In this document: positions 1-64,000 of the stretch, one piece after another | Position numbering within the stretch: the first letter of the stretch is position 1 | Layout: every line of letters starts with the position of its first letter | Virus record (IMG/VR): IMGVR_UViG_3300027804_000069 | Span: 1,353 to 65,352 of that record | Length of the DNA: 64,000 nt | Origin: a virus | Taxonomy: Duplodnaviria; Caudoviricetes | Reading direction: 5' to 3' (one strand) | Notes under the pieces: generated by a model | Told to the model about the DNA's origin: nothing | Seen by the model: the letters and a program-made list of their open reading frames with translations, nothing else | Database searches by the model: none | Made by a program: the position numbers and the translations under genes

Positions 1-181
1 GTCCAATCTGCTTATATGTAGTAGCTGACAAATAGAAAAACTCAGACCCATAGTTATAAGTTCCTAAACTATTCATTAACTGATTGTATGTAATAGTAGG
101 AGTGCTAATGCTACTTGTAGGTGGCACAGCACTAACCATTGGAACTAAAGCGGTACTTACTACTGAAGGTAATAAAGCCAT
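1..181 (-). CDS. 5' part of an ORF running off the window (MALLPSVVSTALVPMVSAVPPTSSISTPTITYNQLMNSLGTYNYGSEFFYLSATTYKQIG...), possible capsid-protein paralogue
   Basis: Not in the ORF track. ATG at 181, 2 nt after the stop of 184..510, open to the window edge. Weak similarity to the core of 25732..26430. Confidence 0.7.
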   Translation of the reverse strand, partial: MALLPSVVSTALVPMVSAVPPTSSISTPTITYNQLMNSLGTYNYGSEFFYLSATTYKQIG

Positions 182-183
182 AA

Positions 184-510
184 TTAGATTATTTTATTTC
201 CTTTTAAATCTGCAGCGAATAACCTTCCGCTACCTTTATCTTTATGCACTCTCATGCCATATTCTTTTGCAAATTCTGCGTTCATATCACCTAAAAAAGA
301 AACAGATTCACCCGCTTCTTGAGCTGATTTATAAGCACTCAATACGATTGCAGCATTTTTAACCTCGTCCTCACTTGGAGCTGATTTAGTAGATGCAGTT
401 GATTTAGACTTCTTTGATGAACCGCCAAGAGGCATAAGTTTTTTGAAAGCCCAATAAAATAGGACTGCACCACCAAAGATTAAAATGATTTTTTTAGTAT
501 CAGTATTCAT
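184..510 (-). CDS. small protein with N-terminal transmembrane anchor
   Basis: KKIILIFGGAVLFYWAFKK hydrophobic segment flanked by Lys; coupled to neighbours. Confidence 0.8.
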   Translation of the reverse strand: MNTDTKKIILIFGGAVLFYWAFKKLMPLGGSSKKSKSTASTKSAPSEDEVKNAAIVLSAYKSAQEAGESVSFLGDMNAEFAKEYGMRVHKDKGSGRLFAADLKGNKII

Positions 511-875
511 TATTTACCATATTTTTTAACGAGGAAATACACACCAACGATTGCTAAGACACCACCTACTAAATAGATAGTACCCATTTTGATACCGCCA
601 ACAAAATCACCTTCTAATCTTTGTTTCTTACTTGTATTCAAAATGTCAAGTGTTGCATCCGTTTCATTTGGAGTTACAACACCTTTTTTAGACAATAAAT
701 CGTTTAATACACCTTGCAGCCTGTCTGTATTCTTTTTTAAAAGCTCCATAGCTGCCTGACCATACTGACCATTGTTTATAGCATCAGATACTTCGCTTAA
801 TTCTGCTTTCACTTGATTTACAAGTGCATCTTTTTTATCAGGGGTCAAAATTTGCCCTTTTTTAATTTCTGCCAT
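510..875 (-). CDS. small protein with C-terminal transmembrane anchor
   Basis: TIYLVGGVLAIVGVYFLVKKYGK tail. Confidence 0.8.
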   Translation of the reverse strand: MAEIKKGQILTPDKKDALVNQVKAELSEVSDAINNGQYGQAAMELLKKNTDRLQGVLNDLLSKKGVVTPNETDATLDILNTSKKQRLEGDFVGGIKMGTIYLVGGVLAIVGVYFLVKKYGK

Positions 876-876
876 A

Positions 877-1230
877 TTAATCTCTTTTTAATTTAATAGC
901 TACTAACCCACCTATTATAATAAGACCACCTATTCCCGCCACAATATAGAGTGATTTTTTTGTTTTTTCTTTTTCAGCTTGTACTTTACCCAAAGCCTCG
1001 ATTCTAGCAACGTCTAATTTACCCAAAGTATCACCAAGTATTTGCTGTCTAGCTGCTTCACTATTAGCCTCAATTAACTGCTTGTTTAAAATAACTTTTT
1101 GGTCATAATCTAAACCTGCCAAGTTCTGAACGAACTTACGTCTTTGATTCATGTCCTTTGTATTGGCTATTGCACTAGCTATGCCTGTTAAAGCACCTGC
1201 TACGGCTGTTCCTGCTAATATGTAACTCAT
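877..1230 (-). CDS. C-terminally anchored membrane protein, paralogue of 1660..2049
   Basis: Shares NQRRKF-x-QNL...LNK-x-L with 1660..2049; C-terminal TM. Confidence 0.8.
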   Translation of the reverse strand: MSYILAGTAVAGALTGIASAIANTKDMNQRRKFVQNLAGLDYDQKVILNKQLIEANSEAARQQILGDTLGKLDVARIEALGKVQAEKEKTKKSLYIVAGIGGLIIIGGLVAIKLKRD

Positions 1231-1658
1231 TCAGCTATTTTTTTACTATTGTCAATAAATGGGTTTTCGTGTTTTTCTATTATTCTGTCCTCTATTTCTT
1301 TTAAATCTTGAGTATTGCTTGGATTGAGGTGATAAGTAGTCCAAACACAATCTTCGATTACATACAAAACTCTTCTAGTCCCTGCTTGAGTAATTCCTGT
1401 GTAAGGAGCTTCATATTCAACCCAATCACCCGCATCAATACAAACCATAACTCTACCCTTTGAAATAGTGAAGGGGTGCTCTGTTCTGTGTATTTTACTT
1501 GTAATTAAAGAACCTGCAGCCATAGTTATTTCTCTAATATACATACCATCAGTAAACCTATGCTCCAAAGGGCATACGATTTGCTCTTGCTCCAAAATAA
1601 GAGCTTCAAGCTCGTCTATTTTTGAATCGTTGGTTCTATGTAATATTTCTAAAGACAA
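1227..1658 (-). CDS. cupin-like conserved phage protein
   Basis: H-x-F-x-x-G-x-Y-x-RE...KIH-x-x-EH...SKG pattern seen in phage cupin-fold proteins (recognised by eye). Confidence 0.6.
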   Translation of the reverse strand: MSLEILHRTNDSKIDELEALILEQEQIVCPLEHRFTDGMYIREITMAAGSLITSKIHRTEHPFTISKGRVMVCIDAGDWVEYEAPYTGITQAGTRRVLYVIEDCVWTTYHLNPSNTQDLKEIEDRIIEKHENPFIDNSKKIAE

Positions 1659-1659
1659 A

Positions 1660-2049
1660 CTATGATTTTTTAACGATTAATGCTATAAGACCAATACCTA
1701 CTAAGATAAAAGCACCTGCAGCTATATATGTATTTGTTCTACTTTTTCTTTCTTTTTCAGTTACACTAGCAACTAATAAATCAATTCTTTTAGCTTGTAA
1801 ATCTGTAAGTACGTCTCTAAGAATTTTAAGTCTTTCGGTTTCACTACCTGCATCAACTAAAGCCTTATTTAGAGCTGCTTGTTGCTCCGCAGTAAGTAAA
1901 TCAAGGTTTTGAGAGAACTTACGTCTTTGGTTTGCATCACTAACTGAAGCAATAGTATTAATAGCAAGAGCAGCTACTTCGCCCCCTGCTTGTATTGCTG
2001 CAGCGGTATTTGCTGCCTGTGATGCTTGAGATGCTGCGTCTTTTGACAT
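1660..2049 (-). CDS. C-terminally anchored membrane protein, paralogue of 877..1230
   Basis: DANQRRKFSQNLD vs DMNQRRKFVQNLA; C-terminal TM followed by KKS. Confidence 0.8.
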   Translation of the reverse strand: MSKDAASQASQAANTAAAIQAGGEVAALAINTIASVSDANQRRKFSQNLDLLTAEQQAALNKALVDAGSETERLKILRDVLTDLQAKRIDLLVASVTEKERKSRTNTYIAAGAFILVGIGLIALIVKKS

Positions 2050-2058
2050 AACTTATTA

Positions 2059-2644: not shown

Positions 2645-2866
2645 TTAAGTCTTTTTTTCGTCTTTCAGACCAAATTTAATGTATTTATACCAAATTCTCT
2701 CATGAATATAATATTGCAGGGGCTTATACAGTATTTCTGCTACTCCAAAGGCTGCACCTACCTTAATTGAGCCACTAGCCCACCACATAATCAAAAACCC
2801 GATTAAAGTGCTCAAAAGCCTGTAAGATATTGTTTTAGCCAAGTGCCTACTAGCCGATACTCGCAT
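2645..2866 (-). CDS. DUF2061-like small membrane protein
   Basis: RHLAKTISYR...YYIHERIW pattern. Confidence 0.7.
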   Translation of the reverse strand: MRVSASRHLAKTISYRLLSTLIGFLIMWWASGSIKVGAAFGVAEILYKPLQYYIHERIWYKYIKFGLKDEKKT

Positions 2867-3236
2867 TGTGTAATTGTTTTAGTTGTTCTCTGATTTTGGT
2901 AGCTGATATTTCTGCTATTTCAGGGGGAACTGATAGTTGCTCTACTTTATAGCCAACGTCTCTGCCATAGTAAACACCCTCAATGTCAGGTATCACCATA
3001 ACTTTCATCATTCCTTCTGAAATCCACCCAAAAGTTTCTTGGTCTTGAGTAAACATAGTCATGACCTGCTGTGCAGTAAAAGGATTTTTTTGGTCTGTAG
3101 GAACGTCCCTAATACCAATCAAAACGGGTATACCTTCAGTTATTTTCTTTCTAAATAGGTATTTGTGTCCCTCGTGAAGACTCTGATACCTTCCTATGAA
3201 AAGAGCATATTTCTTTGACGCAGTGTTTGATTCCAT
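2850..3236 (-). CDS. HIGH-type nucleotidyltransferase (cytidylyltransferase-like)
   Basis: FIGRYQSLHEGH (HxGH), NPF, ISATKIR (KMSKS-like). Confidence 0.75.
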   Translation of the reverse strand: MESNTASKKYALFIGRYQSLHEGHKYLFRKKITEGIPVLIGIRDVPTDQKNPFTAQQVMTMFTQDQETFGWISEGMMKVMVIPDIEGVYYGRDVGYKVEQLSVPPEIAEISATKIREQLKQLHNASIG

Positions 3237-3648
3237 TATTTGTAGTATTTAATATTAATAAATTAGACATTTCAAATTCGTTAGGTATGTCGAAATCTTT
3301 TACATGAAAGGACTCTCTACCCCTTATATCATTATATTGTAGGTAGACCCATACAATCTGACCTTTACAAAGCTCCTCCAAATACTCTCTAGCCTCCTTA
3401 ATTGGATAAACAGCACTAACGATTACTTCATAATACTTGTTATTCATAAAGGTAGCTATGTCACTTATCTTTTGTAAGTTCTTAATTCTACCTTCTTTTG
3501 AAAAATCTTTATTCTTAAAAAGCTCTCTAATATCGTCCCCATCTATAATTGGGGTTGAAATACCTCTTTCTAAAAATAGTTCTGATTGAACCTCTTTTGC
3601 TAATGTTGTTTTACCACTATGAGGCTGACCGAATAGTACTATAATCAT
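3151..3648 (-). CDS. cysC: adenylylsulfate kinase-like P-loop kinase
   Basis: GQPHSGKTT Walker A; IDGDDIR...FSKEGRIKN typical of APS kinase. Confidence 0.75.
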   Translation of the reverse strand: MIIVLFGQPHSGKTTLAKEVQSELFLERGISTPIIDGDDIRELFKNKDFSKEGRIKNLQKISDIATFMNNKYYEVIVSAVYPIKEAREYLEELCKGQIVWVYLQYNDIRGRESFHVKDFDIPNEFEMSNLLILNTTNNGIKHCVKEICSFHRKVSESSRGTQIPI

Positions 3649-4445
3649 GGTATTATGTAATTAAATTTTTCAAATCTTTCTTTAGGAATAGCAACACAAT
3701 CAAGACACTTACCACTATATGTTTGATATGGTTTACCCTCTTGAAATTGTTTTACTACATATCCTAACTCTTCTATTTTAGCTTTAAGTTCATTCTCTGA
3801 TGTTCCTTGTTCTTTCAATAGGTGATTCTCAAACTCTATAAACATATAAGGTCTATGTTTCTTAATAGTTTCTTTAGCACCATCAATAACATGAGATTCA
3901 TACCCTTGTACATCTATTTTAATAAATGCAACATCCCCAAATGTAAAACTATCTAAAGCTCTTTGTTGAACTATGTCTCCTCCATTATTACTAACTCTTA
4001 CATCTCCAAAATTAACATCTTCTTTACTGTGATAATCAGGAGTCTGTATGAAAACTTCTTTTTCGATACCATTTCCAATTGCTACATTTTGACAAAATAC
4101 ATTGTCTAATCCATTAAGGAATACATTAGTACACAATTGATAGTATATGATACGCTGTGGTTCAAAACTAAAAACTCTACCATGGTCACCAACTAAATGA
4201 GCAAAGTCAATAGCAAAATTACCGTTGTTAGCTCCTACATCAATAATATCTTTCCCTTCACAATCTATTTGATTTCTGTCAAGAAAGTCAAACAAATAAG
4301 GTTCATATTGCCATCCTTCTATAATAGAACTTGTAACAGCATTATCTTTAGGAAACAAAGCATAGATTAACTTGTTTACATGAAAAGCATTTCTAAAATC
4401 CTTTTTATCAAGTTGATATAAACCTATTTGAAATTTTGTCTTCAT
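3645..4445 (-). CDS. FkbM-family methyltransferase
   Basis: IIDVGANNG, FSFEPQ, FIKIDVQGYE. Confidence 0.85.
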   Translation of the reverse strand: MKTKFQIGLYQLDKKDFRNAFHVNKLIYALFPKDNAVTSSIIEGWQYEPYLFDFLDRNQIDCEGKDIIDVGANNGNFAIDFAHLVGDHGRVFSFEPQRIIYYQLCTNVFLNGLDNVFCQNVAIGNGIEKEVFIQTPDYHSKEDVNFGDVRVSNNGGDIVQQRALDSFTFGDVAFIKIDVQGYESHVIDGAKETIKKHRPYMFIEFENHLLKEQGTSENELKAKIEELGYVVKQFQEGKPYQTYSGKCLDCVAIPKERFEKFNYIIP

Positions 4446-5266
4446 TACTTACTATATCGGAATTGTTCAAAAAACCATTTATAATTTTCGTAAATCCAAT
4501 TGTTCACATCCTTGCCAAGTAATTGCTTTGCTTTAGAAGGGACAGGTTCTAATTTAGTTCTAATGACATGGTCACCAAATGTGCCATAAACTTCATCGTC
4601 TTCTTTTGTTACTTGTTCTATGTTATCAAAATCGTGCTTATAAAAAGGTATATCTAAATACTGATAAATTCTTGTCATTTCAGTATCAGGATATAAGCAT
4701 AGGTCTTCAAATTTTACAAACAGCATTTTACTATCTGTACCCATTCTAAATATCTCTGAAAGTCTTTCTATTGCTAGACCTACAGGCTGTCCTGCAGCCC
4801 ATATATCTACTCTCTTTGGTACAGTTGTACCTTGACCTTTAGCCCAATCAAGTATATCTGATTGCTTTTCAGGATGCTTTCTAAAATTATTTTCCATAGA
4901 TGCAAAAACGTCCCTCAAATCCCTAACCATGCAAATAATCTTGGGTTCGTCTTGTCTAACAAAATGTAAAAAATCGTAGTGGATTCCCCACCCCCTAGAT
5001 TTATCTATAACATATTTCTTATCAGTAATTGCATTGTAAAAAGCGTCCATACCTGCATTTGCAAAGGACTGCCAACCTTTTTTCATAAGTTCAGCGTCTT
5101 GAGCTATAAACTCAGGTGAAGTTGTATAATTAGCTCTAGCTCCAAATATCAGCTCTAATACACCACTTGTAGGAGTTGCATATATATCAGGGTTTTGAGC
5201 TAAAATATTTTGTAAAAGGGTTGAACCTGCACGAGGCAGCGAACTTTGAAAGAATAATTTTTCCAT
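4445..5266 (-). CDS. sulfotransferase family protein
   Basis: SSLPRAGSTLL (5'-PSB loop), MVRDLRDVFAS (3'-PB), VKFEDL. Confidence 0.85.
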   Translation of the reverse strand: MEKLFFQSSLPRAGSTLLQNILAQNPDIYATPTSGVLELIFGARANYTTSPEFIAQDAELMKKGWQSFANAGMDAFYNAITDKKYVIDKSRGWGIHYDFLHFVRQDEPKIICMVRDLRDVFASMENNFRKHPEKQSDILDWAKGQGTTVPKRVDIWAAGQPVGLAIERLSEIFRMGTDSKMLFVKFEDLCLYPDTEMTRIYQYLDIPFYKHDFDNIEQVTKEDDEVYGTFGDHVIRTKLEPVPSKAKQLLGKDVNNWIYENYKWFFEQFRYSK

Positions 5267-5268
5267 AA

Positions 5269-5640
5269 CTATTTGTATGATTTTTCCTCTATGATTTCAG
5301 AATTGTAGTTTGTATTGATAGCCTTTTTGACCAAAGCCCTTTTATCATTGAACTTATATACGTTTCTAGCAAGTTCAATAAATTCAGCACCAAAGTCTTT
5401 AGACTTCTCATGTGAACGCTTAGAGTTCTCTATTTCCCAAAGAATGAGGTTTATTTTGTATAGCTTCTTAAACTCCCTTGTAGACGCATATCCTTTGTCT
5501 AATTTAAGTGCCTTTTTACATAGGTAATTGTACTCTTTTAGTACGTTGTGGAGCTTTTCAGGGTCGGTTATTCTGAACCTTTTTATTTCGAGTATGGCTA
5601 TTTTATCAAATAGCTCACCTACACTTACTTTTATGGTCAT
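5269..5640 (-). CDS. DUF6165-like protein
   Basis: VSVGELFDKIAILEIK...LWEIE...FIELARNVYKFNDKR. Confidence 0.7.
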   Translation of the reverse strand: MTIKVSVGELFDKIAILEIKRFRITDPEKLHNVLKEYNYLCKKALKLDKGYASTREFKKLYKINLILWEIENSKRSHEKSKDFGAEFIELARNVYKFNDKRALVKKAINTNYNSEIIEEKSYK

Positions 5641-5712
5641 TTTGTTTATTTTGATGTAAATGTAAATGTTTTAATCAAAATATACTAAATTTATGGCGAA
5701 AAAAAACCATAA
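5641..5712. promoter_or_regulatory. divergent promoter region
   Basis: 72-bp AT-rich gap between divergent operons. TAAATTTA on + and TACATTTA on - resemble the Bacteroidota -7 box TAnnTTTG. Confidence 0.5.
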
Positions 5713-6654
5713 ATGAAGCCAATTTGTTTGAACCTGACCGAATGCAACGGTTTGGGTGATTTAATCTGTGCTACTCCTACAATCAAAAAGATACACGATT
5801 CTTACGGGCAAAAGGTAACTATCTTATCCAAGATGCCTGAACTATTTAAGACTAACCCTTATGTCGAAAAGAGCTTTAAGTCTAGCTCTGTTGATATGGG
5901 TTATTTTAATGAAAACTACCTCATGCACAACTCTTTTTACAACGTAGGTAAAAGAAATGAAAGAGGTATTGAATACAAGCATAACATGATGGACATTCGT
6001 CAGTTCCATGCTATTCATTTGGGTTTTATGTTAGGCAAAAATGAAATGGAATGTTTTTACAAGCCACTAACAGACCTTACAATAGAAGTCCCCGAAAAAT
6101 ATGTTTTGATACACCCTGTATCTACTTGGGAGGCAAGAACTTGGAAAGCAGAGAATTGGATGCAACTCACGAATAGCTTAAATGATTTGGGCTACAACGT
6201 AATATCTATAGGCAAAGACTCTTCTGAAACGGGATTTTTCAACGTAGACAAACCTGTATTCAACTTTGAAATAGAGAAAGGAATAAACCTCATGAATAAG
6301 ACTTCTATTTCTGATTGTTGGCATCTTATAAATAAAGCTCACTGCTTTGTTACAATGGATTCAGGGCTTTTACACCTTGCAGGGACTACTGACACCCATA
6401 TCATTCATTTGGGCTCTTCAATCAAACCTGAATTTAGAATGCCATACAGAAGAGGTAGACAAGGTGTTTACAAGTATGACTATGTGAGAGGTACTTGTGG
6501 CTTGGAATGTGCTTCAGATATGAAATACGGAGTTAAACAATGGGGGGATATACAAGGAGTAGCACCTCTTATCAAATGTTTGGAAGATAAGCCTACATAT
6601 GAATGCCATCCTTTTATAATAAATGTATTGAACAGAATTTTAGAAATAGATTAA
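5713..6654 (+). CDS. GT9-family glycosyltransferase
   Basis: GLGDLIC, FVTMDSGLLHLAG, C-terminal Cys cluster. Confidence 0.85.
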   Translation: MKPICLNLTECNGLGDLICATPTIKKIHDSYGQKVTILSKMPELFKTNPYVEKSFKSSSVDMGYFNENYLMHNSFYNVGKRNERGIEYKHNMMDIRQFHAIHLGFMLGKNEMECFYKPLTDLTIEVPEKYVLIHPVSTWEARTWKAENWMQLTNSLNDLGYNVISIGKDSSETGFFNVDKPVFNFEIEKGINLMNKTSISDCWHLINKAHCFVTMDSGLLHLAGTTDTHIIHLGSSIKPEFRMPYRRGRQGVYKYDYVRGTCGLECASDMKYGVKQWGDIQGVAPLIKCLEDKPTYECHPFIINVLNRILEID

Positions 6655-6655
6655 T

Positions 6656-9352
6656 ATGAAAAAGAAACTACTTATTATTTCTCCGCACTATTCTACAGGT
6701 GGAAGTGGTCAATTTAGTGTCAATAAAGTGGAATTACTAAAGAATGATTTTGAAATAAAGGTCGTAGAATATAGCTTTTTAGCGTATCAATTTGTTGTAC
6801 AAAGAAATAGAATTATTGACCTCGTAGGATTAGATAACTTTCATTCTTTAAGTGCTGATAAGTCAGGAATGCTAAAAAAGATTATTGAGGACTTTAAGCC
6901 TGATATTATATCTATGGAGGAGTTCCCTGAAATGTTTATGGACAAAGCTATAGCTGATTGGATATACCACTCTGAAAGAAGTTATAAGATTTATGAAACT
7001 ACGCATGATAGTAGCTTTAACCCAAAAAACAAAATATATACTCCTGATGAATTTGTATTTGTTAGTGCTTACAATTCACTCATGTACAAAGAATTAGAAA
7101 TACCTACTTCAGTTGTAGAATACCCAATAGACTACATAGAAAGAAATAAAAAAGAGGCTAGAGAAACATTAGAACTTGAGCATGACTATAAGCACGTTGT
7201 TATCATTGGACTTTTCACTCCTCGTAAAAACCAAAAGTATTCTTTTGAACTAGCTGAAAGACTTTCTGACTACAAAATAAAGTTTCATTTTATTGGCAAT
7301 CAGGCTGAAAACTTTGCGTTTTATTGGAAACCACTCATGGACAAAAAACCTGAAAATTGTACCATTTGGGGTGAGAGGTCAGATACAGAAACATTCTTAC
7401 AAGCTGCAGACTTATTTCTATTTACTTCAAAAGGTGATAAGGGCAATAAGGAATTAAATCCCCTTGTAATTAAAGAGGCTGCTAAATATCAAGACCTTCC
7501 AAAACTCATGTACAATTTAGACGTTTATCTAAATAAATACAATACTAGTAAAGACTTTAGCTTTTTATCAGGTGACTTATCAGAAGATACAAATAAGGTT
7601 ATAAGTCTTACTAGTCCTATAAATTTGTATGGGTCAAATGACGAATTAATCATTATAGGTACTTACCCAAATTTAAAAAGTAGAATACAACTAACAAAGG
7701 ACACCATTAAGAGCCTCAAACCAATAGGCAGGGATATACTACTCATTTCTCATTTACCTGCTGATACAGATACCCAAAAATTAGTAGAGCACTATATTTA
7801 TGACAAGTACAACCCACTAACGCACCATTCTTATTATACAAGATTTTTTAGAACCACAGACGAATACCATGCTGAAATAAATATCAATGGGCTTAAAGAT
7901 AGCAACCAATCTTTGTGCGTTTATACCAATCTACTTACCTCTGCCAAGTACGCAAAACAAATGGGTTATAAGAGGTTTTTTTATACCACTTATGACGTTA
8001 TAATAGACGAAAGAGACATACCTACAATAGAAGATAGCTTTGAGTCTGTAAAAAATACCAAAGGAGCTTATTTAGGGACTTTAGATACACCATTTGGAAA
8101 AGGAGTGCAAACCAATGGAATGACCTTTGATACCGATTATTTCTTACAGGCTTTTGAAGATATACGCACACCTGACAAGTACAATCAGCTATGTCAAATA
8201 GTTGGAGCAGAAAACTTTTTAGAGGACTTATTGATTAAAGTAATCAGAAACAATAATACAAATAATGAAGTTGTATTTAAAGATAATCGTTCTCAAACAC
8301 TACTGATACATAGTGGTTTAGGGGTGGCTTCAAATTCTGAATACTATTCTATTTTATCGGTTAAGGGCAAAGAAAATACTTTTATGTTTTACTTCTATAC
8401 CTACAATATAGATGACAGAAAGGTAAAACTGAGCATAGATAGTAAGAATTTCAATTTTATGAAAATCATTGAAATAAATAAGACTAATGAAGCTATGCAG
8501 GAGTTTGTTTATTCAGGTGAGGAAATACTTGTGACTTTAGATTTTTATGATGGTGATGTGATTTACAAAAAAGAACACTATAAGATTAATGAAGAGACAT
8601 TACCTAAATATAGTAATACAGGTCATTTCAAATGGAACAAAAGACCAAAGATTAAATTAGTACACATTCAAACTACTAGAAACGATGAAAAAGAACAAAA
8701 AAGCAGAGAGCAACTTTCAAGAGTCAAAGAGTATGGGTGGGAATATATCTTGCACACCAATACACCATACCAAGACTTGCCACCTAAACACAACTGCCAA
8801 AGACCCGATTGTGTTTCATACGAACTCTTCGATGAACAAACAATTCAGCGTCTTGGAACTGCACTTACCCCAAGTCACTATGGCTGCTATTTAGCTTTTA
8901 AAGAAGCTATTTTAACTGAATTTGAAGATTGTGACTTTTTGATTGTTTGTGAAGGTGATTGTAAAATAGAAATACCACTAGAAGATTTTATTAAAAAAGT
9001 AGAATCAACTTGCCCTACAATAGTAGATAACAACATAGGTTATATGTCTTATGGAGACAAAGCAACACTTGAACATGGGTGGCTACAATCCCCTGTAGTT
9101 AGAGAAATACCTAACCAAGACCTGCTTTACATAACCAATCACATTATAGGACTTCAATGTATTATGTTCCCTATTAAGGTAAAAAAATGGCTTAAAGAAA
9201 AGCTAAGGACTCACAGATGGGACGCAAGTGATATGTTCTACAATTCGGTATTTGTTAATTCACCTTACATTATGGCAATCCTTCATGAAAGAATAACTAC
9301 TCAATTTGATGGATATTCAACTATTGACAGAACTAATAAAACATTTTTATGA
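6656..9352 (+). CDS. multidomain glycosyltransferase (N-terminal GT4-like, C-terminal GT-A/GT25-like)
   Basis: IGLFTPRKNQK, FLFTSKG...ELNPLVIKEA; HYGCYLAF...LIVCEGDC. Confidence 0.75.
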   Translation: MKKKLLIISPHYSTGGSGQFSVNKVELLKNDFEIKVVEYSFLAYQFVVQRNRIIDLVGLDNFHSLSADKSGMLKKIIEDFKPDIISMEEFPEMFMDKAIADWIYHSERSYKIYETTHDSSFNPKNKIYTPDEFVFVSAYNSLMYKELEIPTSVVEYPIDYIERNKKEARETLELEHDYKHVVIIGLFTPRKNQKYSFELAERLSDYKIKFHFIGNQAENFAFYWKPLMDKKPENCTIWGERSDTETFLQAADLFLFTSKGDKGNKELNPLVIKEAAKYQDLPKLMYNLDVYLNKYNTSKDFSFLSGDLSEDTNKVISLTSPINLYGSNDELIIIGTYPNLKSRIQLTKDTIKSLKPIGRDILLISHLPADTDTQKLVEHYIYDKYNPLTHHSYYTRFFRTTDEYHAEININGLKDSNQSLCVYTNLLTSAKYAKQMGYKRFFYTTYDVIIDERDIPTIEDSFESVKNTKGAYLGTLDTPFGKGVQTNGMTFDTDYFLQAFEDIRTPDKYNQLCQIVGAENFLEDLLIKVIRNNNTNNEVVFKDNRSQTLLIHSGLGVASNSEYYSILSVKGKENTFMFYFYTYNIDDRKVKLSIDSKNFNFMKIIEINKTNEAMQEFVYSGEEILVTLDFYDGDVIYKKEHYKINEETLPKYSNTGHFKWNKRPKIKLVHIQTTRNDEKEQKSREQLSRVKEYGWEYILHTNTPYQDLPPKHNCQRPDCVSYELFDEQTIQRLGTALTPSHYGCYLAFKEAILTEFEDCDFLIVCEGDCKIEIPLEDFIKKVESTCPTIVDNNIGYMSYGDKATLEHGWLQSPVVREIPNQDLLYITNHIIGLQCIMFPIKVKKWLKEKLRTHRWDASDMFYNSVFVNSPYIMAILHERITTQFDGYSTIDRTNKTFL

Positions 9353-54890: not shown

Positions 54891-55111
54891 AAGTGCTCTT
54901 CTTTTAAGGAATATAGCTCAAGTGCTACTTTTTCGTCAAATTCATCTACAAATTTCGTGCTAATCTTTTCATCCTCTACTCTTATTTGAAAGCAGGAAAA
55001 TACCTTTTCACCAAAAAAGTACCTGATGTAAACAGCCGATTTCGCTACTATCTTGGTTATGGTGCAGGTAGCTAACCTATTGTTTATATTTATTTTTAGC
55101 GTTTTCACCAT
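54887..55111 (-). CDS. hypothetical protein
   Basis: Operon context. Confidence 0.45.
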   Translation of the reverse strand: MVKTLKININNRLATCTITKIVAKSAVYIRYFFGEKVFSCFQIRVEDEKISTKFVDEFDEKVALELYSLKEEHL

Positions 55112-55289
55112 AAATAGCGTTGTGTTTTAATATCAATTCTCCTATTACGATATTAGTACTTATTCCGAATAAAATCAAAAGTGTAAAATTCATATCTGAA
55201 ATAAATGCTTTTTTTAGGTAATTAAGCACTAGATAGCCACAGATTAAAATTACATTGAAAAAGAATAGCACATAAAGAAATACCTTCAT
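55077..55289 (-). CDS. small two-TM protein
   Basis: Two hydrophobic segments. Confidence 0.5.
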   Translation of the reverse strand: MKVFLYVLFFFNVILICGYLVLNYLKKAFISDMNFTLLILFGISTNIVIGELILKHNAIYGENAKNKYKQ

Positions 55290-55294
55290 TTTGA

Positions 55295-55981: not shown

Positions 55982-55990
55982 GGTTTTGTT

Positions 55991-56608
55991 TTAGTATTTA
56001 TTAAAATTTTCTCTATGTCTTCTATAATACAGCAGTCCCTGACTGACATGGCTCACACTTGCTCCCGCCACTTTTAGCTTATTCCAAAGGTTTAGGTCTT
56101 CGTCACTTCTAGGTGAAGTCCTGTTGTGCTCGTATCCCCCTACGCTTAAAGCTAGTTTTACGTCATACATCATACTGCCATGATGCTGTCCTTTTCTTGA
56201 CCAATACCAATCCCCAAAATGATGGTTTACTTCTCTTGGGTAAAAATTACGGATTTCGTCCCGAAGCTCACCTGTCACAACTATGTCACAAACTATTACG
56301 TCTGTATTCTCTTTACAAAGCTGTTCTAAGGTATCAGGTCGTAACCAATTATCTGCCCCCACAAACATAACCATATCTGTAGTAACTCTCTCTAACATAT
56401 CCTGAAAATTTGCCACAACCCCTAAATTTTTGTCCCTGAGCACAAATTCTACTTCGGGATATATGCTCACTAGCTGTTGGCAATCCCCCGCAGCATCGTC
56501 CACAAATAGTACCTTATCGAATTTACGAGTTTGGCATAAAACCGATTCTATGCAATTAGCTGCCAAATGACCATAATGGTATGAGGCAATTACGCAGGTG
56601 TAAGTCAT
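55991..56608 (-). CDS. GT2-family glycosyltransferase
   Basis: VIASYHYGH...CIESVL, FVDD, GADNW, DEDLNLW. Confidence 0.85.
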   Translation of the reverse strand: MTYTCVIASYHYGHLAANCIESVLCQTRKFDKVLFVDDAAGDCQQLVSIYPEVEFVLRDKNLGVVANFQDMLERVTTDMVMFVGADNWLRPDTLEQLCKENTDVIVCDIVVTGELRDEIRNFYPREVNHHFGDWYWSRKGQHHGSMMYDVKLALSVGGYEHNRTSPRSDEDLNLWNKLKVAGASVSHVSQGLLYYRRHRENFNKY

Positions 56609-56865
56609 GATTTTTCAATTATTGTTTTTACCTCTTGCCAATGCTCTGATTCAATACCATGTTTTAATAGCTCCCTATTATATCCTTCAGCAATATATTT
56701 AGCCATGTCCTTAACAGCCCTATCAATATTAATTTCGGGTATTAAATGTAAGTTATGAGGGAAACAAGCCCATGTACCTGTCTGAATTTTAGACCTACAA
56801 TCTGATAATAAGATTATAGCGTCCTGATTGGGTGTAAATTCCATACTATTCTGTTTCATGGTCAT
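56605..56865 (-). CDS. hypothetical protein
   Basis: Operon context. Confidence 0.5.
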   Translation of the reverse strand: MTMKQNSMEFTPNQDAIILLSDCRSKIQTGTWACFPHNLHLIPEINIDRAVKDMAKYIAEGYNRELLKHGIESEHWQEVKTIIEKS

Positions 56866-57115
56866 GGTATTGTTGGTATTGATTATAGGCTTCAGGATTT
56901 ACCTGTTTTAGATATTCTAATGAATTTAGGATTCTGTCCATTTGCTTATTACTAATATGAAGCTCATGGGTTAAAGAATCTAATATTGTGCTTTGACTGT
57001 TAATATGAGTCTTTATTTCTCCGTTCTGTAACGCTAATACGATAACCCCTACAAACGCTATTGAGGATAAGAATATTACCCATAGTACGTTTTTTATTTT
57101 TTCTATTATTCTCAT
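56846..57115 (-). CDS. TM plus coiled-coil protein
   Basis: N-terminal TM. Confidence 0.55.
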   Translation of the reverse strand: MRIIEKIKNVLWVIFLSSIAFVGVIVLALQNGEIKTHINSQSTILDSLTHELHISNKQMDRILNSLEYLKQVNPEAYNQYQQYHDHETE

Positions 57116-57756
57116 AAATAAGGTTTTTTGTTATTAAGCCATAAACTTGCTCCCTTTACAGCACCTAAATTAGTATTAATATTATTAGGCACAAAATCAT
57201 ATTTATTCCTTAATTCATCGTTATTGTTCTCTGATATATGATAATTGAATGCAAGTACCTCATAATCATGAACTATACTTATTATAATATCGTTCTCGTT
57301 CCATAAACGCATTTCTGAATTATTCCTCCATTCTTTAGGATAACCGTACTGACCGAAATAATCATGGAAATGGATAATGACCCCTTCTTTTAATTTAGGC
57401 AGGACTTCATGGATAATAAAATGTACGTCACTCCCTGTTTCGTATATATGGCTTGAATCTATAAAAAGCACGTCATTACGTTCTAGCTTTTCAAATAAAT
57501 CAAAACTTACGTCCTGAACGTATGAACGTACATAATTTATATTTGGGTAGATTATTCTAGGCATTGGGTCTATGGCAGTCAGCTCGACATTTGCTCTGCT
57601 AGATAGCCATGTGGAATAACCACAACCTACCTCTATTACCCGACTAGCTCCTTTTAAAAAGTGCCAATAGGTGAGTGCGTCTAATGGAGGGAATTGGTCG
57701 TTGTGCCAATCGAACTCTTTTGGAAAGTCAGCTATGTTTAGTTCTAATGGGTTCAT
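57112..57756 (-). CDS. class I SAM methyltransferase (Methyltransf_24-like)
   Basis: IEVGCGYST, LFIDSSH, IHFHD. Confidence 0.85.
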   Translation of the reverse strand: MNPLELNIADFPKEFDWHNDQFPPLDALTYWHFLKGASRVIEVGCGYSTWLSSRANVELTAIDPMPRIIYPNINYVRSYVQDVSFDLFEKLERNDVLFIDSSHIYETGSDVHFIIHEVLPKLKEGVIIHFHDYFGQYGYPKEWRNNSEMRLWNENDIIISIVHDYEVLAFNYHISENNNDELRNKYDFVPNNINTNLGAVKGASLWLNNKKPYL

Positions 57757-57765
57757 TTTCAGGGT

Positions 57766-58278
57766 TTAGAGGTAAGGTCTGTATACTTTGTAGCACCAAT
57801 CTTGTTCGTTAGGATTTTGGCTACCCTGAGTAACACTCCAAGCCATTTCATATCCCGCTTCTTTTACGCAGTCTATTACCATTTGGTTGAAATTGCCGTA
57901 TGGGTAAGCAAAGTACTTCATTGGGAAAGGAGGGGTTATTTCCTGCATTACTTCCGTTCTGCTGAGTTTAGTTAGGTCGGGGTGAGACCAAGTATGCCAC
58001 CCAATTTTGAAATTCAGGGTTTCAGCCATTTCGTGTATTTCGTCCCATGTGCAGTACTTCTCTAATTTGGGTACATGGGCTAAATCAAAAGAATTGTCTT
58101 TTCCAACGTAGTCTCCCATGACAAAGAAAACACCGCTTTTGCCTTCGAGTACGTCTCTATTGTCGTATACGTTTTTATAGATTCCGTCAAACCCGATTAG
58201 GTCTTTACAAGCAAGTATCTGCTCCCTAGTGTGATAGTTTGAGTGGTTTTCCGTTCCAATGTTGTGTGCTAGTACCAT
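57766..58278 (-). CDS. polysaccharide deacetylase (NodB-like)
   Basis: FDGIY, IGWHTWSHPDL, FAYPYG. Confidence 0.85.
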   Translation of the reverse strand: MVLAHNIGTENHSNYHTREQILACKDLIGFDGIYKNVYDNRDVLEGKSGVFFVMGDYVGKDNSFDLAHVPKLEKYCTWDEIHEMAETLNFKIGWHTWSHPDLTKLSRTEVMQEITPPFPMKYFAYPYGNFNQMVIDCVKEAGYEMAWSVTQGSQNPNEQDWCYKVYRPYL

Positions 58279-58757
58279 TATCTTATTTTATAAAGGGTTG
58301 TTCTTTGGGTATATTCCCTATAATTAAAATTAATTGTTTTTATCGGTTCGCCAAAGTCATAATCTATTAGCCATTCTGCTATACCTGATATAAGGATATG
58401 TTTACTGCTGCATTTCATTATCATATCATAAATAGCTTTGTGGTCGTACTGAGGGTAAAGCGTTCCTGTACTTATTACAAGGTCAAACTTCCCTTCGGGT
58501 CTAGTTACAGCTTTTACGATTTGAGGTAACCTAGACATAGCGTTGTCTGATAAGTCAAGCCCGTATATTTCTGCTGCAGGTAGCTTTTCCGTTATAAAGC
58601 CTTCGCCACAGCCAATGTCCAAAGCTCTCTTATAAAGCGGTTCGTCTTCTAGTAAGCCTAGAATGAAATCACGTCTTTTGAAATCTTCAGGGTTTGAAAA
58701 GTAGCCCCATCTGTCAGGACTATCATACCAATCTTCTAGTTCTTGTTTTGTTTGCAT
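58278..58757 (-). CDS. class I SAM methyltransferase
   Basis: ALDIGCGEG, GLDLS, FDLVI. Confidence 0.85.
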   Translation of the reverse strand: MQTKQELEDWYDSPDRWGYFSNPEDFKRRDFILGLLEDEPLYKRALDIGCGEGFITEKLPAAEIYGLDLSDNAMSRLPQIVKAVTRPEGKFDLVISTGTLYPQYDHKAIYDMIMKCSSKHILISGIAEWLIDYDFGEPIKTINFNYREYTQRTTLYKIR

Positions 58758-60885: not shown

Positions 60886-61743
60886 TTAATTGGTTTTGAA
60901 ATAAGATACATAAACCTTTTTAAGTAGCTGAATGATATCCATTTCGTCAAACTTCTTACATACGATAAATTCCCTAGCGTACTTCTTGCGTTTCTCTTCG
61001 GGGTTTTGGTCAGCAGAGGTTGGCTTAATGCGTTTTAATACGCTTTCCATGTACCTTTCCTCTTTTTCCTTTCTGAGTTTAACGTCAGCATAGTTTAAGG
61101 CTTCGTCTATTTCGTCTTTGGTTGGATTTATCTGACTTGTAGCTTTCATCCATTTGTAAATGGACTCCTGAGTGTCCCAAAAGGTATCATTCTCCTTATA
61201 GGACTCATAAATAGATATTAAGTACTCTTTGAAGACCTGACACTTATATTCAGCGGTTACTTCTGTTTTGGTATCTAAATCCCTTCTACTTTCATACCTG
61301 TGTTTGTTATGAGCTATTTCGTTTACGAGGTACATCTTTTTAGCTTCATATGACTGCATACACTTGGATATATAAAAGGCAGATATATTCTTTTGGGTTA
61401 CATACCCTACGTCAATCTTTCCGCTTATAGACCAATTCATAGCTAAACGTATGTCAGCTAGTGTGAACTTACCGAAGTTGTCATAAATGAATTGACAGAT
61501 TACAACTAACTCCGTTTCGGTAGAATCGTTGGTTACACCTAATAGAAGCCTCCATTGAGCCATGAGCTTTACTAAATTAGCCATGTCTTCTGAGTTATAG
61601 TCTTTTATGCGTTTCTCGGAGAATGTTCTAACTGCAGCTAATTCATCGTCTGTTTTTATCCATTCGCCAATTAAATTGTTGGGCTTTTGCAACGCTATCT
61701 GAGAGTTTGCTAATAGTGTCTTTTGGATTTCTAGGTTGTTCAT
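60886..61743 (-). CDS. possible replication-initiation partner (helicase-loader position)
   Basis: Directly after the replisome-organiser-like gene; function inferred from position only. Confidence 0.4.
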   Translation of the reverse strand: MNNLEIQKTLLANSQIALQKPNNLIGEWIKTDDELAAVRTFSEKRIKDYNSEDMANLVKLMAQWRLLLGVTNDSTETELVVICQFIYDNFGKFTLADIRLAMNWSISGKIDVGYVTQKNISAFYISKCMQSYEAKKMYLVNEIAHNKHRYESRRDLDTKTEVTAEYKCQVFKEYLISIYESYKENDTFWDTQESIYKWMKATSQINPTKDEIDEALNYADVKLRKEKEERYMESVLKRIKPTSADQNPEEKRKKYAREFIVCKKFDEMDIIQLLKKVYVSYFKTN

Positions 61744-61975
61744 TTAGATATTTTGTGAATTTTTGACCAAATAGGGTTTGGGGTCTAATATACTGCTCGT
61801 ATTCAGTTCCTTTCCATTGTGATAGCTTTAAGGCTGTTACTTTTCTGAAGTCTTCCAAAGTGTGCCCTTTTTCGATTAGTCCTTTCATCAGGTCTTGGGC
61901 TTCTTTGTAATTGAAGGCATTTGAAGTATGCTCCTTAAAGTAATCTAGCACATGGTTGATTTCCTCTATACTCAT
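61643..61975 (-). CDS. phage replisome-organiser-like conserved C-terminal domain
   Basis: TLEDFRKV...W...QYIRPQTLFG-x-KFTKYLN. Confidence 0.75.
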   Translation of the reverse strand: MSIEEINHVLDYFKEHTSNAFNYKEAQDLMKGLIEKGHTLEDFRKVTALKLSQWKGTEYEQYIRPQTLFGQKFTKYLNEQPRNPKDTISKLSDSVAKAQQFNWRMDKNRR

Positions 61976-62208
61976 AGTATTTCAGTTATAGGTACGTCTA
62001 ATGCGTCTGCAAACTTCTTGGCTGTATCTAGCTTTGCTATAGGTCTGAACCCGCTGCAGATATTCGATAGGTTCGTTAGGGCTATAAAGTAGCCTGTCTT
62101 TTCAAATAGGATTTCAGCAAATTCCCTTTGCGTCATTTTCCTCTCCTTTAGGATTTCCCCTAGCTTACTTCTAGTGTAGGGTTTCTGTTTCTTTTGTGTT
62201 TGTTCCAT
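61972..62208 (-). CDS. Cro/CI-type helix-turn-helix regulator
   Basis: LKERKMTQREFAE...LSNICSG...KFADALDV. Confidence 0.75.
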   Translation of the reverse strand: MEQTQKKQKPYTRSKLGEILKERKMTQREFAEILFEKTGYFIALTNLSNICSGFRPIAKLDTAKKFADALDVPITEIL

Positions 62209-62252: not shown

Positions 62253-62426
62253 TTAATTGCTTTTATTAAAATGTTCATAAATTAGTTTATGCACCGCATC
62301 CCAAAATTCATACCTGTCTTTTGAAATGTCCTTTAGCTCTCTTTTAATTTCTGAAACCATGTATAGACATTTGAGTTCATCTTTTATCCAATGTATGATT
62401 TCATGAGCTTGTTCTTGTTCGTCCAT
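62253..62426 (-). CDS. 57-aa hypothetical protein between two repeats
   Basis: Not in the track; MDEQEQAHEIIHW...HFNKSN*. Confidence 0.65.
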   Translation of the reverse strand: MDEQEQAHEIIHWIKDELKCLYMVSEIKRELKDISKDRYEFWDAVHKLIYEHFNKSN

Positions 62427-62438
62427 AAGTAATTAATT

Positions 62439-62699
62439 TTAATTGTTTTGACCAATACCTAATTCTGCCATTTTTGAATTAAGGTGATTTAATAGGTCTA
62501 CCATAAAATCAGTCTTACCATGCAGTCTTGATATTTCATACTGCTCTATTAGTAAATCTGCAAAGTGTTCAGGGTCTTTTGGTATTTCGTCTTTTCTCCT
62601 TTCAAGTAAAATAACCTCACCTGATATGATGTGTCTTTGTTTGGTACAGAAAGTATGTATGGACTCTGCAAAATAATATAGCTTTTCCTTATCGGTCAT
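62439..62699 (-). CDS. hypothetical protein
   Basis: Flanked by 21-bp repeats. Confidence 0.6.
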   Translation of the reverse strand: MTDKEKLYYFAESIHTFCTKQRHIISGEVILLERRKDEIPKDPEHFADLLIEQYEISRLHGKTDFMVDLLNHLNSKMAELGIGQNN

Positions 62700-62710
62700 A
62701 GTAATTAATT

Positions 62711-63145
62711 TTAATTGTTTTCGTCAAATAGGATTTCGACATTTGAAAGATTTGGTTTTGGCTTTGGTTTATCATAGTCAGCCTTATAGTTAAAAAAGAG
62801 GCTTAGTTGCTCTTCATACTTTTCGTCATGCTCCTCCTGACTATACTGAATGTCCATATTTTCAAGAACGACACTATTCCAAATTGCGTATATGTATTGG
62901 GTCTTTACTTGTAAAGCACCACCCATATTCAATACTATAACCTTCTTTCTCCTTTCTAGTCTGAGGCTTTTGTGATTTATTATATCTGAAATTTCTTGGG
63001 GCTGATAAACCTCTTTGTATTTTTTATACCAATCGGTAGCCTCTTCATCGGTTTTAAAAAAATCGGTGTCAAAGTACATATCGTCTACTTTGAAAATGTA
63101 CTGACTAGTTCCGTTGGTCGTTTTCTTTTCTAATTTGAAATTCAT
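62711..63145 (-). CDS. hypothetical protein
   Basis: Stop lies in the 21-bp repeat. Confidence 0.6.
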   Translation of the reverse strand: MNFKLEKKTTNGTSQYIFKVDDMYFDTDFFKTDEEATDWYKKYKEVYQPQEISDIINHKSLRLERRKKVIVLNMGGALQVKTQYIYAIWNSVVLENMDIQYSQEEHDEKYEEQLSLFFNYKADYDKPKPKPNLSNVEILFDENN

Positions 63146-63163
63146 GGTGTTTGCTTTTATGGT

Positions 63164-63394
63164 TTAAAAATATTTAGGGAAATCGGATTTGTGACCGATG
63201 TGAATAAAAGAATCTCTTTTGAATGAATCAGGGAGCATTTGAAATACGTCCCCTTTGTCTGTAACGAAGTATTCGCTGCCACCTAGCGTGTTAAACATAT
63301 CTAGGGCATCTTTTGGCATTCCATAGCCGAAGGTGAATACATTGGTTGCTGTACGCTGAAGGTACTTGCGTGATAGGATTTTGGCTTTTGTCAT
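63164..63394 (-). CDS. hypothetical early protein
   Basis: AACCATTTAAACC-ATG leader shared with 63406..63639. Confidence 0.55.
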   Translation of the reverse strand: MTKAKILSRKYLQRTATNVFTFGYGMPKDALDMFNTLGGSEYFVTDKGDVFQMLPDSFKRDSFIHIGHKSDFPKYF

Positions 63395-63405
63395 GGTTTA
63401 AATGG

Positions 63406-63639
63406 TTATTTGGTGATAATTTCAAAAGTGTAGTTACCGCTTTTGTCGGCTCTTGTAAACATTTGGTGTAGACCTTCAGCCTCATTTCGATTTTGGAGCT
63501 GTGCGTCACTTTCATGACTCCAATGCTCTGACTGACCTAGAGCACCCAAGTCTATATGACCTGCAAAGTAGCGTACTTGGTTTAGATACCTTTGATTGGA
63601 AGATTTGACTCTAGTTCTTTTGATAACGTAGCTTTTCAT
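63406..63639 (-). CDS. hypothetical early protein
   Basis: First ORF after the right-end non-coding region. Confidence 0.55.
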   Translation of the reverse strand: MKSYVIKRTRVKSSNQRYLNQVRYFAGHIDLGALGQSEHWSHESDAQLQNRNEAEGLHQMFTRADKSGNYTFEIITK

Positions 63640-64000
63640 GGTTTAAATGGTTTTAGGATATAAAAATACTAAATTCTCATTACTAACAATGACTTATTTG
63701 TTAAAATTTTGTTAAAGAACTACAAATGCTATTAACAAATCAATATTTTTAGATAGGGACACGACCAAGTAGAAATCCACTTTTGCACTTTCTCACAGAA
63801 ACGGCTCAAATTTCGACCCAAATTTTTCGGACGATAAAATACCCGACCCGAAGGCTATCCTCGAAATTCGCAATTACAAACTATGCAGCAATCGGCATTC
63901 ACCTCCCTTCACCACATTACCCAAAACCAAAACCCCCACTCCTCCACCTATTTGAGGACTCAAACCAATTAAGTTCGTTTTTTTGTCCGAACGTCAAAGC
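63640..64000. other. non-coding region: promoter and possible origin or genome end
   Basis: No ORF; TATTTTTA-TATC promoter-like box; TTGTTAA repeats; C-rich + strand. Confidence 0.4.

Follow-up and report, generated by a model that had tools for sequence, protein, structure and literature searches.

Features of the window and its closest relatives

We analysed a 64,000-nucleotide (nt) stretch of viral DNA, hereafter called the window, that comprises bases 1353-65352 of the 65,352-bp IMG/VR virus record IMGVR_UViG_3300027804_000069, with emphasis on two neighbouring genes that code for a candidate genome-packaging ATPase and a candidate coat protein. The source is an uncultured bacterial virus of lake water, and the window represents most of its linear genome of approximately 80 kb. 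It has 35% G+C and about 97 genes at a coding density of 95%, and 87 of these genes are located on the minus strand. No tRNA genes were found in the window, and no terminal direct repeat was evident in the 65,352-bp record. An earlier note, prepared from the sequence alone, had proposed that this DNA belongs to a giant tailless, lipid-containing phage of Bacteroidota with a genome of at least 64 kb. The 65,352-bp contig is incomplete, and at approximately 80 kb the genome is larger than the minimum stated in that note.

The contig is collinear with an IMG/VR record of 84,229 bp (G001), with which it shares approximately 82% nucleotide identity, and G001 reaches 12.6 kb further to the left. The left break of the window's contig falls inside a Thr-rich repeat of a spike-like gene. 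The additional 12.6 kb of G001 includes genes for RecT, for several early-type proteins lacking assignment, and for glycosyltransferase-like and methyltransferase-like proteins that were read from sequence motifs; no head or tail genes were found in this segment. Approximately 60 window proteins were covered by Pfam and PHROGs scans, to which six-frame profile searches were added.

A predicted packaging ATPase of the FtsK-HerA superfamily

The gene at 26831-27652 on the minus strand codes for a 273-amino-acid (aa) protein that we assign to the genome-packaging ATPases of the FtsK-HerA superfamily (B204/P9 type) on the basis of its AlphaFold2 model, its structural matches and its motifs. The earlier note had described a soluble FtsK/HerA-type ATPase with an RH...Q signature, and such a protein is indeed present. 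Residues of Walker A (G12, K14, G15, G17 and K18), Walker B (E113 and D114) and the R135-H136...Q146 segment are invariant in 32 homologues, and the protein carries neither a membrane segment nor an additional domain.

The model is confident, with a predicted local distance difference test (pLDDT) score of 89. STIV/STIV2 B204 entries (from Sulfolobus turreted icosahedral viruses) occupy ranks 1-14 in a Foldseek search (E 5e-9, target template modelling score 0.70), followed by SIR2-HerA (6e-6), Zot (1e-5) and VirB4 (4e-5). VIA-align likewise places STIV2 B204 first, with a Z score of 18.2 and a root-mean-square deviation of 2.5 Å over 187 of 204 residues, ahead of DndH (Z 16.4), HerA (16.0), VirB4 (15.7) and FtsK (11.1). 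The earlier note had raised the prospect that the ATPase might cluster with conjugative VirB4/HerA proteins. Its model instead lies closest to B204, which ranks first in both structural comparisons, albeit by a modest margin. Among profile comparisons made with hhalign, the ATPase profile aligns with P23-77 ORF13 at E 7.5e-5 over 145 columns that include the R...Q segment, and with PRD1 P9 at Walker A only. Thus, as far as can be judged from the model, the protein most resembles the B204/P9-type packaging ATPases and is predicted to work as they do.

Approximately 500 metagenome homologues of the ATPase were found on contigs of up to 118 kb, and a few of these homologues carry the HerA/DUF87 domain (PF01935). 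Neither Pfam nor PHROGs yielded a match for the 273-aa protein, and tblastn searches of 50,697 phage records with the ATPase and with the 232-aa jelly-roll protein described below were also without a match. Profile searches of solved-structure sequences returned Walker A noise only, and nothing exceeding chance was recovered from the ESM Atlas. Even a six-frame search with the DUF87 profile misses the ATPase, which reveals the low sensitivity of such profiles in this lineage.

A jelly-roll protein that is probably the major coat protein

Located 400 nt downstream of the ATPase gene is a gene for a 232-aa protein (25732-26430, minus strand), and between the two is a gene for a 35-aa single-pass membrane peptide (26488-26595, minus strand) that was recognized by its hydrophobic segment and is kept in two relatives (G002 and G005). 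The 232-aa protein is probably the major capsid protein, as suggested by its model, its conservation, its position and the structure of its family. The model (pLDDT 86) consists of an N-terminal helix, a disordered linker (residues 19-55) and a beta-sandwich (residues 55-220). The beta-rich capsid candidate noticed earlier beside the ATPase thus does have a jelly-roll fold, a feature whose absence the earlier note had named as counting against its reading.

All structural matches of the 232-aa protein are jelly-rolls, and all are weak (Foldseek E ~1e-3, VIA-align Z 4.4-5.8). Among them are coat proteins of plant and picorna-like type, chain O of the PRD1-like phage PR772 (124 aa), the base of the PM2 spike protein, STIV A223, and capsid proteins of FLiP, phiCjT23, Faustovirus and adenovirus. 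Given that these weak matches equally include TNF/C1q-like and fibre-head domains, the fold alone cannot identify a coat protein. The VP16/VP17-type chains of P23-77 are absent among the structural matches listed, which does not speak against a relationship to them. No match to the 232-aa protein, or to proteins of 92 and 377 aa, was found in Pfam or PHROGs.

The 232-aa protein has 559 close homologues and, at 50% identity, 546 clusters. Of the proteins compared it was the most strongly conserved: identity in G002-G005 is 81-83%, versus 68-70% for the ATPase, and 80-98% among relatives in which the ATPase is 65-74% identical. A second, shorter jelly-roll paralogue (165-225 aa) was recognized with the family profile in all six genomes examined (E 9e-17 to 5e-9). 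In the window only its N-terminal part is present, at positions 1-193 on the minus strand, as the gene for this protein of approximately 165 aa (contig 1039-1545) straddles the left edge; it was recognized by hmmsearch with the A2 profile (E 9e-17). In G001, the paralogue adjoins a 333-aa protein with a long Thr-rich linker that is a plausible vertex spike.

One distant relative carries a fused form of this protein. A 107,188-bp contig in ENA includes a gene for a 397-aa protein (P0259, L077:10001-11194) that is composed of two complete jelly-roll domains in tandem, each recognized at E ~1e-41, and that on sequence grounds appears to be a natural double jelly-roll formed by fusion. This arrangement fits a side-by-side packing of the domains as in double jelly-roll capsomers. 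The same contig also has a similar glycosyltransferase island and a giant DUF5661 protein. When the window was inspected for double jelly-rolls, the coat candidate proved to be single, and no other window protein matched its profile twice.

Gene order, membrane proteins, fibres and lytic enzymes

In the direction of the coding strand, the genes for the ATPase, the 35-aa membrane peptide and the jelly-roll protein follow one another and lead into an extended series of genes for small membrane proteins. PRD1 (P9-gpi-P20-P3-P22) and P23-77 (ORF13-14-15-16-17) have the same order, the position of the 35-aa peptide being that of gpi/P20 in the former and of ORF14 in the latter. The run of genes that follows (18363-25649, minus strand) codes for small, mostly single-pass membrane proteins and small beta-rich proteins, which on the basis of conservation and hydrophobic segments are probable internal-membrane or minor virion proteins. 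Genes for proteins of 92, 132, 162 and 267 aa within this block are kept in six of six genomes, and no Pfam or PHROG matches were found for its small proteins. The block is interrupted by a NUMOD3 homing endonuclease gene (21718-22362, minus strand) that was identified by profile match. As a separate observation, the conserved 267-aa protein (20925-21728, minus strand) carries an HExxH motif.

A second block of small membrane proteins, recognized by hydrophobic segments, is located at 30620-36566 (minus strand) and includes a GH19-like muramidase (33082-33681) identified by profile match. When the Kyte-Doolittle scale was applied with a 19-residue window and a threshold of 1.6, 28 of 97 predicted genes exhibited a strong hydrophobic segment, and 26 of these are single-pass. 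The earlier count of about 30 single-pass membrane proteins holds because several further genes carry visibly weaker segments.

The fibres and the lytic cassette of the earlier note were also recovered. Two collagen-like (Gly-X-Ser/Thr) proteins of 1526 and 248 aa (12586-17166 and 17175-17921, together spanning 12586-17921 on the minus strand) are probable vertex fibres, the first of which matches the collagen repeat PF01391 at E 2e-50; the PHROG fibre families match these proteins on their repeats only. A cell-wall enzyme region (36592-38657, minus strand; PF01464 and PF01832) comprises an SLT lytic transglycosylase (37201-37914; PF01464, E 1.5e-13), a glucosaminidase with a C-terminal membrane anchor (38076-38657; PF01832, E 1.3e-7) and a 197-aa membrane-anchored protein that lacks an assignment.

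The main collagen-like fibre of G001 (L013:26815-L014, G001 26815-35256) is 2813 aa long, versus 1526 aa in the window, and G001 has two DNA methyltransferase genes (415 and 510 aa, named by motifs) without an aligned counterpart on the window's contig. Fibre length and methylation cargo thus differ between close relatives. Near the ATPase operon is a gene for a PAP2-superfamily lipid phosphatase (29945-30586, minus strand; PF01569, E 2e-9), a candidate for lipid modification in a virus that probably carries a membrane.

Linear genomes with inverted terminal repeats

Three relatives exhibit the signature of a truncated repeat, the pattern expected if, during assembly, one copy of a long inverted terminal repeat is retained in full and the opposite end of the genome is truncated just within its copy. 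By self-comparison, bases 1-114 of G001 are the exact reverse complement of bases 83325-83438. The same relation holds in G002 between bases 640-696 and the last 57 nt, and in G008, at an ATPase identity of only 52%, between bases 440-489 and the last 50 nt.

Contigs from four lake-metagenome runs were positioned along the right end of G001. Two of these runs (X1 and X4) each have a pair of contigs that join a single common repeat contig (894 nt in X1) precisely at position 83325, where one of the pair continues into the right unique sequence and the other carries the reverse complement of G001 bases 115-144, which belong to the left unique sequence. Contigs over the repeat stop at 84184-84227 in all four runs, and none extends beyond the end of that sequence. 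Together, the truncated repeats and the branching and termini of these contigs indicate that the genome is linear with inverted terminal repeats of approximately 905 nt, and therefore that G001 is essentially complete at approximately 85.0 kb. In these relatives, the inverted terminal repeats measure approximately 0.5-0.9 kb. Contig depth over the repeat equals the sum of its flanks in X4 (17.1 versus 9.45 + 7.55) but not in X1 (21.2 versus 25.5 + 20.9), and depth was not used as evidence for copy number.

The window ends within the corresponding repeat. Its positions 63832-64000 align to G001 from 83325 onward and represent the inner ~170 nt of the right inverted terminal repeat, non-coding and C-rich, inside which the contig stops. 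The repeat of G001 (L017:3325-4229, equal to G001 83325-84229) is likewise non-coding and strongly C-rich on the plus strand, and it holds three copies of the 15-mer CTATTGACAGGCTCT at spacings of ~215 nt as well as a 27-nt tandem pair. These elements could possibly serve as replication or packaging signals. A scan of IMG/VR with the 15-mer returned, besides G001, chance matches only.

The enzymes that might replicate such ends were not detected. The profile for protein-primed family-B DNA polymerases (PF03175) gave no matches at E <= 1 in five genomes, a protelomerase profile gave no match, and there are no frames of polymerase size lacking assignment in G001.

Search for tailed-phage genes

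The earlier note had reported that terminase, portal and HK97 capsid genes are not recognizable, and this statement now extends from the window to its contig and to the essentially complete, collinear 85-kb genome of G001. Six-frame searches with Terminase_6N (PF03237), TerL_ATPase (PF03354), Phage_portal (PF04860) and HK97 Phage_capsid (PF05065) gave no matches at E <= 1 in the window's contig and G001-G004. Terminase_6N was likewise without a match in five further relatives of 79-101 kb that are 94-100% complete by CheckV, and thus in none of ten genomes overall. No Pfam or PHROGs match to a terminase, portal or HK97 capsid protein was found among the scanned window proteins, nor was there any match to tape-measure, tube, sheath or baseplate proteins except one tape-measure row at the E 0.01 threshold.

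PHROG labels that mention tails are confined to the collagen-like repeats and to one 143-aa protein (1227-1658, minus strand). The latter matches a 'short tail fiber protein' family at E 8e-31 and looks like a small cupin-type barrel, and its homologues of ~100 aa in small podoviruses (~40-kb phages of Ralstonia, Vibrio and Shewanella) are mostly annotated as hypothetical.

Because Pfam is insensitive here, as shown by the failure of DUF87 to detect the ATPase, the negative results for terminase, portal and HK97 capsid carry limited weight when taken alone. The inventory of the complete G001 genome is the stronger argument. Most of its frames of at least 250 aa are assigned by profile match or motif, and the five exceptions (251-375 aa) either belong to the early module or code for proteins with predicted disorder. 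No frame of at least 400 aa lacks an assignment.

Host and habitat

The right end of G001 was found in 24 runs from 23 lake or freshwater studies. A more distant relative resides in a 590-kb scaffold of Raineya sp. (G011:C1) as an element of ~43 kb at approximately 467,700-510,900 (loci L170-L172 and L074). Its ATPase was recognized at E 1e-50, and a jelly-roll protein is encoded ~400 nt downstream (E 7e-33). The element is bounded by a CI-like repressor gene (~467.7 kb) and a tyrosine integrase gene (~510 kb), and it also carries genes for a C5 methylase, a DnaA-C-like helix-turn-helix protein and an amidase. Genes for acetyl-CoA synthetase and threonine aldolase flank it on one side, and a gene for dihydrolipoyl dehydrogenase on the other. 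The element is thus a provirus integrated into the chromosome of a member of the Bacteroidota.

Only 3% of window genes have a Shine-Dalgarno-like motif ahead of them, versus 9.5% of random positions, and this depletion fits Bacteroidota. The Bacteroidota host named in the earlier note therefore agrees both with the integrated relative in Raineya and with the scarcity of Shine-Dalgarno motifs. By a crude count, the Bacteroidota -7 promoter motif TAnnTTTG was not enriched in intergenic regions. Close relatives also occur in genome bins, on short contigs assigned to six unrelated groups, among them an archaeon. We therefore regard these contigs as mis-binned, and our host assignment does not draw on them.

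Comparison with known membrane-containing viruses

Among characterized viruses, the Halopanivirales (P23-77 of the Matshushitaviridae and SH1-type Sphaerolipoviridae) are the closest to the virus described here, considering the single jelly-rolls with two paralogous genes per genome, the P23-77-like ATPase with its shared gene order of ATPase, small protein and coat, and the linear genome with repeats. Linear genomes with inverted terminal repeats are also described for the Sphaerolipoviridae (PMC12643093). There are also differences. Halopanivirales have genomes of 17-31 kb, which those of the present lineage, at ~80-85 kb, exceed three- to fivefold. Whereas the jelly-roll genes of Halopanivirales form an adjacent pair, here they lie ~26 kb apart, and no sequence similarity to VP16/VP17 is apparent. 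The terminal repeats here are ~0.5-0.9 kb long, no gene for a terminal protein or a polymerase was found, and the hosts are mesophilic freshwater bacteria.

The ATPase resembles STIV/STIV2 B204 and the P9/A32-like ATPases in its single-domain FtsK-HerA architecture, similar size, Walker A and B motifs and Arg...Gln segment, and in STIV/STIV2 the ATPase gene is also located beside the coat gene. However, sequence identity is only 13-18%, the hosts of STIV/STIV2 are archaea, the STIV coat protein is a double jelly-roll, and the window ATPase has an extra C-terminal helical region of ~55 residues relative to B204. The STIV genome is circular and ~17 kb in size.

PRD1 (Tectiviridae) shares the linear genome with inverted terminal repeats, the gene order and a virion lytic transglycosylase. 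It differs in its double jelly-roll P3, its terminal protein and protein-primed polymerase (no polymerase was found here) and its 14.9-kb genome, and its P9 matches the window ATPase profile at Walker A only. The earlier note had drawn its analogy to PRD1, PM2, STIV and the sphaerolipoviruses. The overall design is supported, but PRD1 and PM2 are less close because the coat candidate is a single rather than a double jelly-roll; the closer analogy is to viruses with two single jelly-rolls, such as P23-77 and SH1.

A further point of comparison is phage SSIP-1 of Salisaeta, a tailless, membrane-containing icosahedral phage with an unusually large genome of 43.8 kb. We take its host to belong among Bacteroidota-related bacteria. 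Its genome is circular and half the size of those described here, its habitat is hypersaline, and it exhibits no detectable similarity to our ATPase or jelly-roll profiles. The upper bound of ~30 kb that the earlier note gave for prokaryotic viruses of this kind overlooks SSIP-1. Two types of major capsid protein are said to be encoded by this phage (PMC6356626). No description of the present lineage was found in the literature.

Proposed virion and alternative explanations

We are highly confident that the window derives from a virus with a B204-type packaging ATPase and a family of jelly-roll structural proteins. Our favoured interpretation is that the virus is of lytic type, infects freshwater Bacteroidota and has a linear double-stranded DNA genome, ~80% of which is contained in the window, and that its virion most likely follows the PRD1/P23-77 plan. 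We regard this interpretation as likely on the whole. A comparable degree of trust applies to the proposal, made from gene content, that the virion is tailless and contains a membrane. Under this proposal, an icosahedral shell would be built of the 232-aa single jelly-roll protein, and its vertices would carry the shorter jelly-roll paralogue, the Thr-rich spike protein and the collagen-like fibres. The shell would enclose an internal lipid membrane with ~30 small virus-encoded membrane proteins, and the 273-aa ATPase of B204/P9 type would pump the linear genome into the preformed particle via one vertex. The membrane-anchored SLT and glucosaminidase enzymes would breach the cell wall at entry or exit.

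Several points weigh against this interpretation. HerA, DndH and VirB4 score only 2-2.5 Z units below B204. The jelly-roll matches remain below Z 6, with TNF/C1q-like and fibre-head domains equally among them, and no sequence similarity to any known capsid protein was found (hhalign probability <1% against P23-77 VP16 and VP17). The two jelly-roll genes are widely separated, unlike the adjacent pair of Halopanivirales, and five G001 proteins of 251-375 aa lack an assignment. The limited weight of the profile negatives belongs here as well. Moreover, the evidence on lipid, particle shape and taillessness is indirect, and from gene content we infer the coat role of the jelly-roll protein, the particle membrane and the absence of a tail. 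The earlier proposal of a much larger tailless, lipid-containing lineage is thus supported with regard to ATPase, jelly-roll and genome size, and its tailless and lipid-containing aspects stand as inferences.

Of the alternatives, the one that fares best is a different type of particle, perhaps enveloped or pleomorphic, in which the jelly-roll protein would serve in a spike or matrix instead of an icosahedral shell, with DNA still loaded by the ATPase. The resemblance of the jelly-roll to trimeric TNF/C1q-type heads, the very high load of membrane proteins, the lack of similarity to known coat proteins, and a genome far larger than that of any characterized phage of the PRD1/P23-77 plan are all compatible with such a particle. 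Nevertheless, we judge it improbable, given that the ATPase, membrane peptide, jelly-roll and membrane proteins follow the order of PRD1 and P23-77, that the jelly-roll protein is the most conserved of those compared and has a paralogue, and that a natural two-copy tandem fusion exists, as expected of capsomer-forming jelly-rolls. To our knowledge, ATPases of B204/P9 type occur only in icosahedral, membrane-containing viruses, which we also count against this alternative.

Somewhat less probable again is a tailed phage (Caudoviricetes) with terminase, portal, HK97 capsid and tail genes that have diverged beyond recognition. The ATPase would then be, for example, a HerA-like helicase, and the jelly-roll protein would act as a fibre or as a decoration of the particle. 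In favour of this view, even the ATPase of this lineage escapes Pfam, the collagen-like fibres and the 143-aa protein do match PHROG 'tail fiber' families, and large tailed phages commonly carry polyvalent proteins and glycosylation islands. However, the structural region of the 85-kb G001 genome has no unassigned frame big enough for a terminase or portal protein. Terminase_6N matched none of ten genomes, and TerL_ATPase, portal and HK97 profiles matched none of five; the single tape-measure row at threshold stands by itself among the tail categories. The 'tail fiber' matches reduce to collagen repeats and a ~100-aa domain mostly called hypothetical, and two structural methods place B204 first.

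We consider it very improbable that the DNA is a non-viral mobile element (a linear plasmid or a conjugative element) whose ATPase is of VirB4/HerA type. VirB4, TrwB and HerA do share the ATPase fold at VIA-align Z 13-16, polyvalent proteins occur on conjugative elements too and the genome is linear with terminal repeats. Against this, the ATPase consists of a single 273-aa domain that spans B204 over nearly its full length, and neither a relaxase nor parts of a type IV secretion system were seen. In addition, the gene content includes four cell-wall hydrolases as well as fibres and jelly-roll proteins, and the contigs belong to a virus collection and are widespread in lake metagenomes.

Accessory and early genes

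The remainder of the window is largely devoted to cargo genes, and the glyco islands, polyvalent proteins and homing endonuclease listed in the earlier note were all confirmed, with GT9, GT4 and GT2 glycosyltransferases and an LPD1 polyvalent protein among them. Three giant modular ('polyvalent') proteins of 1634, 834 and 2053 aa are encoded at 38657-52267 on the minus strand and carry LPD1, DUF5661 and DUF5824 domains (phrog_18947, E 7e-62). These proteins are punctuated by [M/Y/F]-[A/E]-x-G-G linkers, which resemble (M/I/L)-x-G-G, the cleavage consensus of adenovirus-type maturation proteases. No protease was identified.

Two glycan-modification islands were delineated by profile matches. 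The first (2850-12336) includes genes for a cytidylyltransferase-like protein, APS kinase, an FkbM methyltransferase, a sulfotransferase, and GT9 and GT4 glycosyltransferases. The first four of these form a sulfation cassette (2850-5266, minus strand) that suggests the production of sulfated and methylated glycans, perhaps on the Ser/Thr-rich fibres. The second island (52549-58757, minus strand) codes for a GT4-like and two GT2 glycosyltransferases, methyltransferases and a polysaccharide deacetylase.

Early or replication genes are located at 60886-62208 on the minus strand and code for a 285-aa protein, a 110-aa protein related to replication initiation and an XRE-type helix-turn-helix regulator (phrog_428, E 4e-20; PF01381). 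An element of ~22 nt is found at gene junctions, for example at L017:2207-2232 (G001 ~82,207-82,232), with many further copies elsewhere, and recurs several times within single metagenome contigs. It agrees with a 21-bp junction repeat that had been noticed separately in the earlier reading of the window.

Implications for tailless membrane-containing phages

Newly recognized in the current study are the linear genome with terminal repeats, the completeness argument that results from it, the Raineya provirus and the tandem jelly-roll fusion. Tailless, membrane-containing phages are believed to be common, but nearly every genome described so far measures 10-30 kb, and the largest that we found is the 43.8-kb genome of the cultured phage SSIP-1, which the genome described here exceeds approximately twofold. 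As a tentative proposal that we would not yet favour, the 76-101-kb lake viruses may constitute a major undescribed lineage, at the level of order or above, of tailless membrane-containing phages that have linear genomes with 0.5-0.9-kb inverted repeats and a coat protein family that occurs both as separate single jelly-rolls and as a tandem fusion.

The combination of a linear genome with long terminal repeats and no recognizable polymerase or telomere resolvase would represent an unexplained mode of replication. Freshwater Bacteroidota are indicated as the hosts with which to isolate such a virus. If the proposal is true, the lineage would be a living example of the transition from single to double jelly-roll proteins, and it would add a new coat-protein family to the debate on the origin of double jelly-roll capsids. 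Among prokaryotic viruses it would also parallel those large viruses of eukaryotes in which jelly-roll capsids occur together with A32-type ATPases and terminal repeats. The existence of a widespread freshwater lineage with genomes of 76-101 kb would demonstrate that bacterial viruses can enlarge this virion plan in a manner similar to the giant viruses of eukaryotes.

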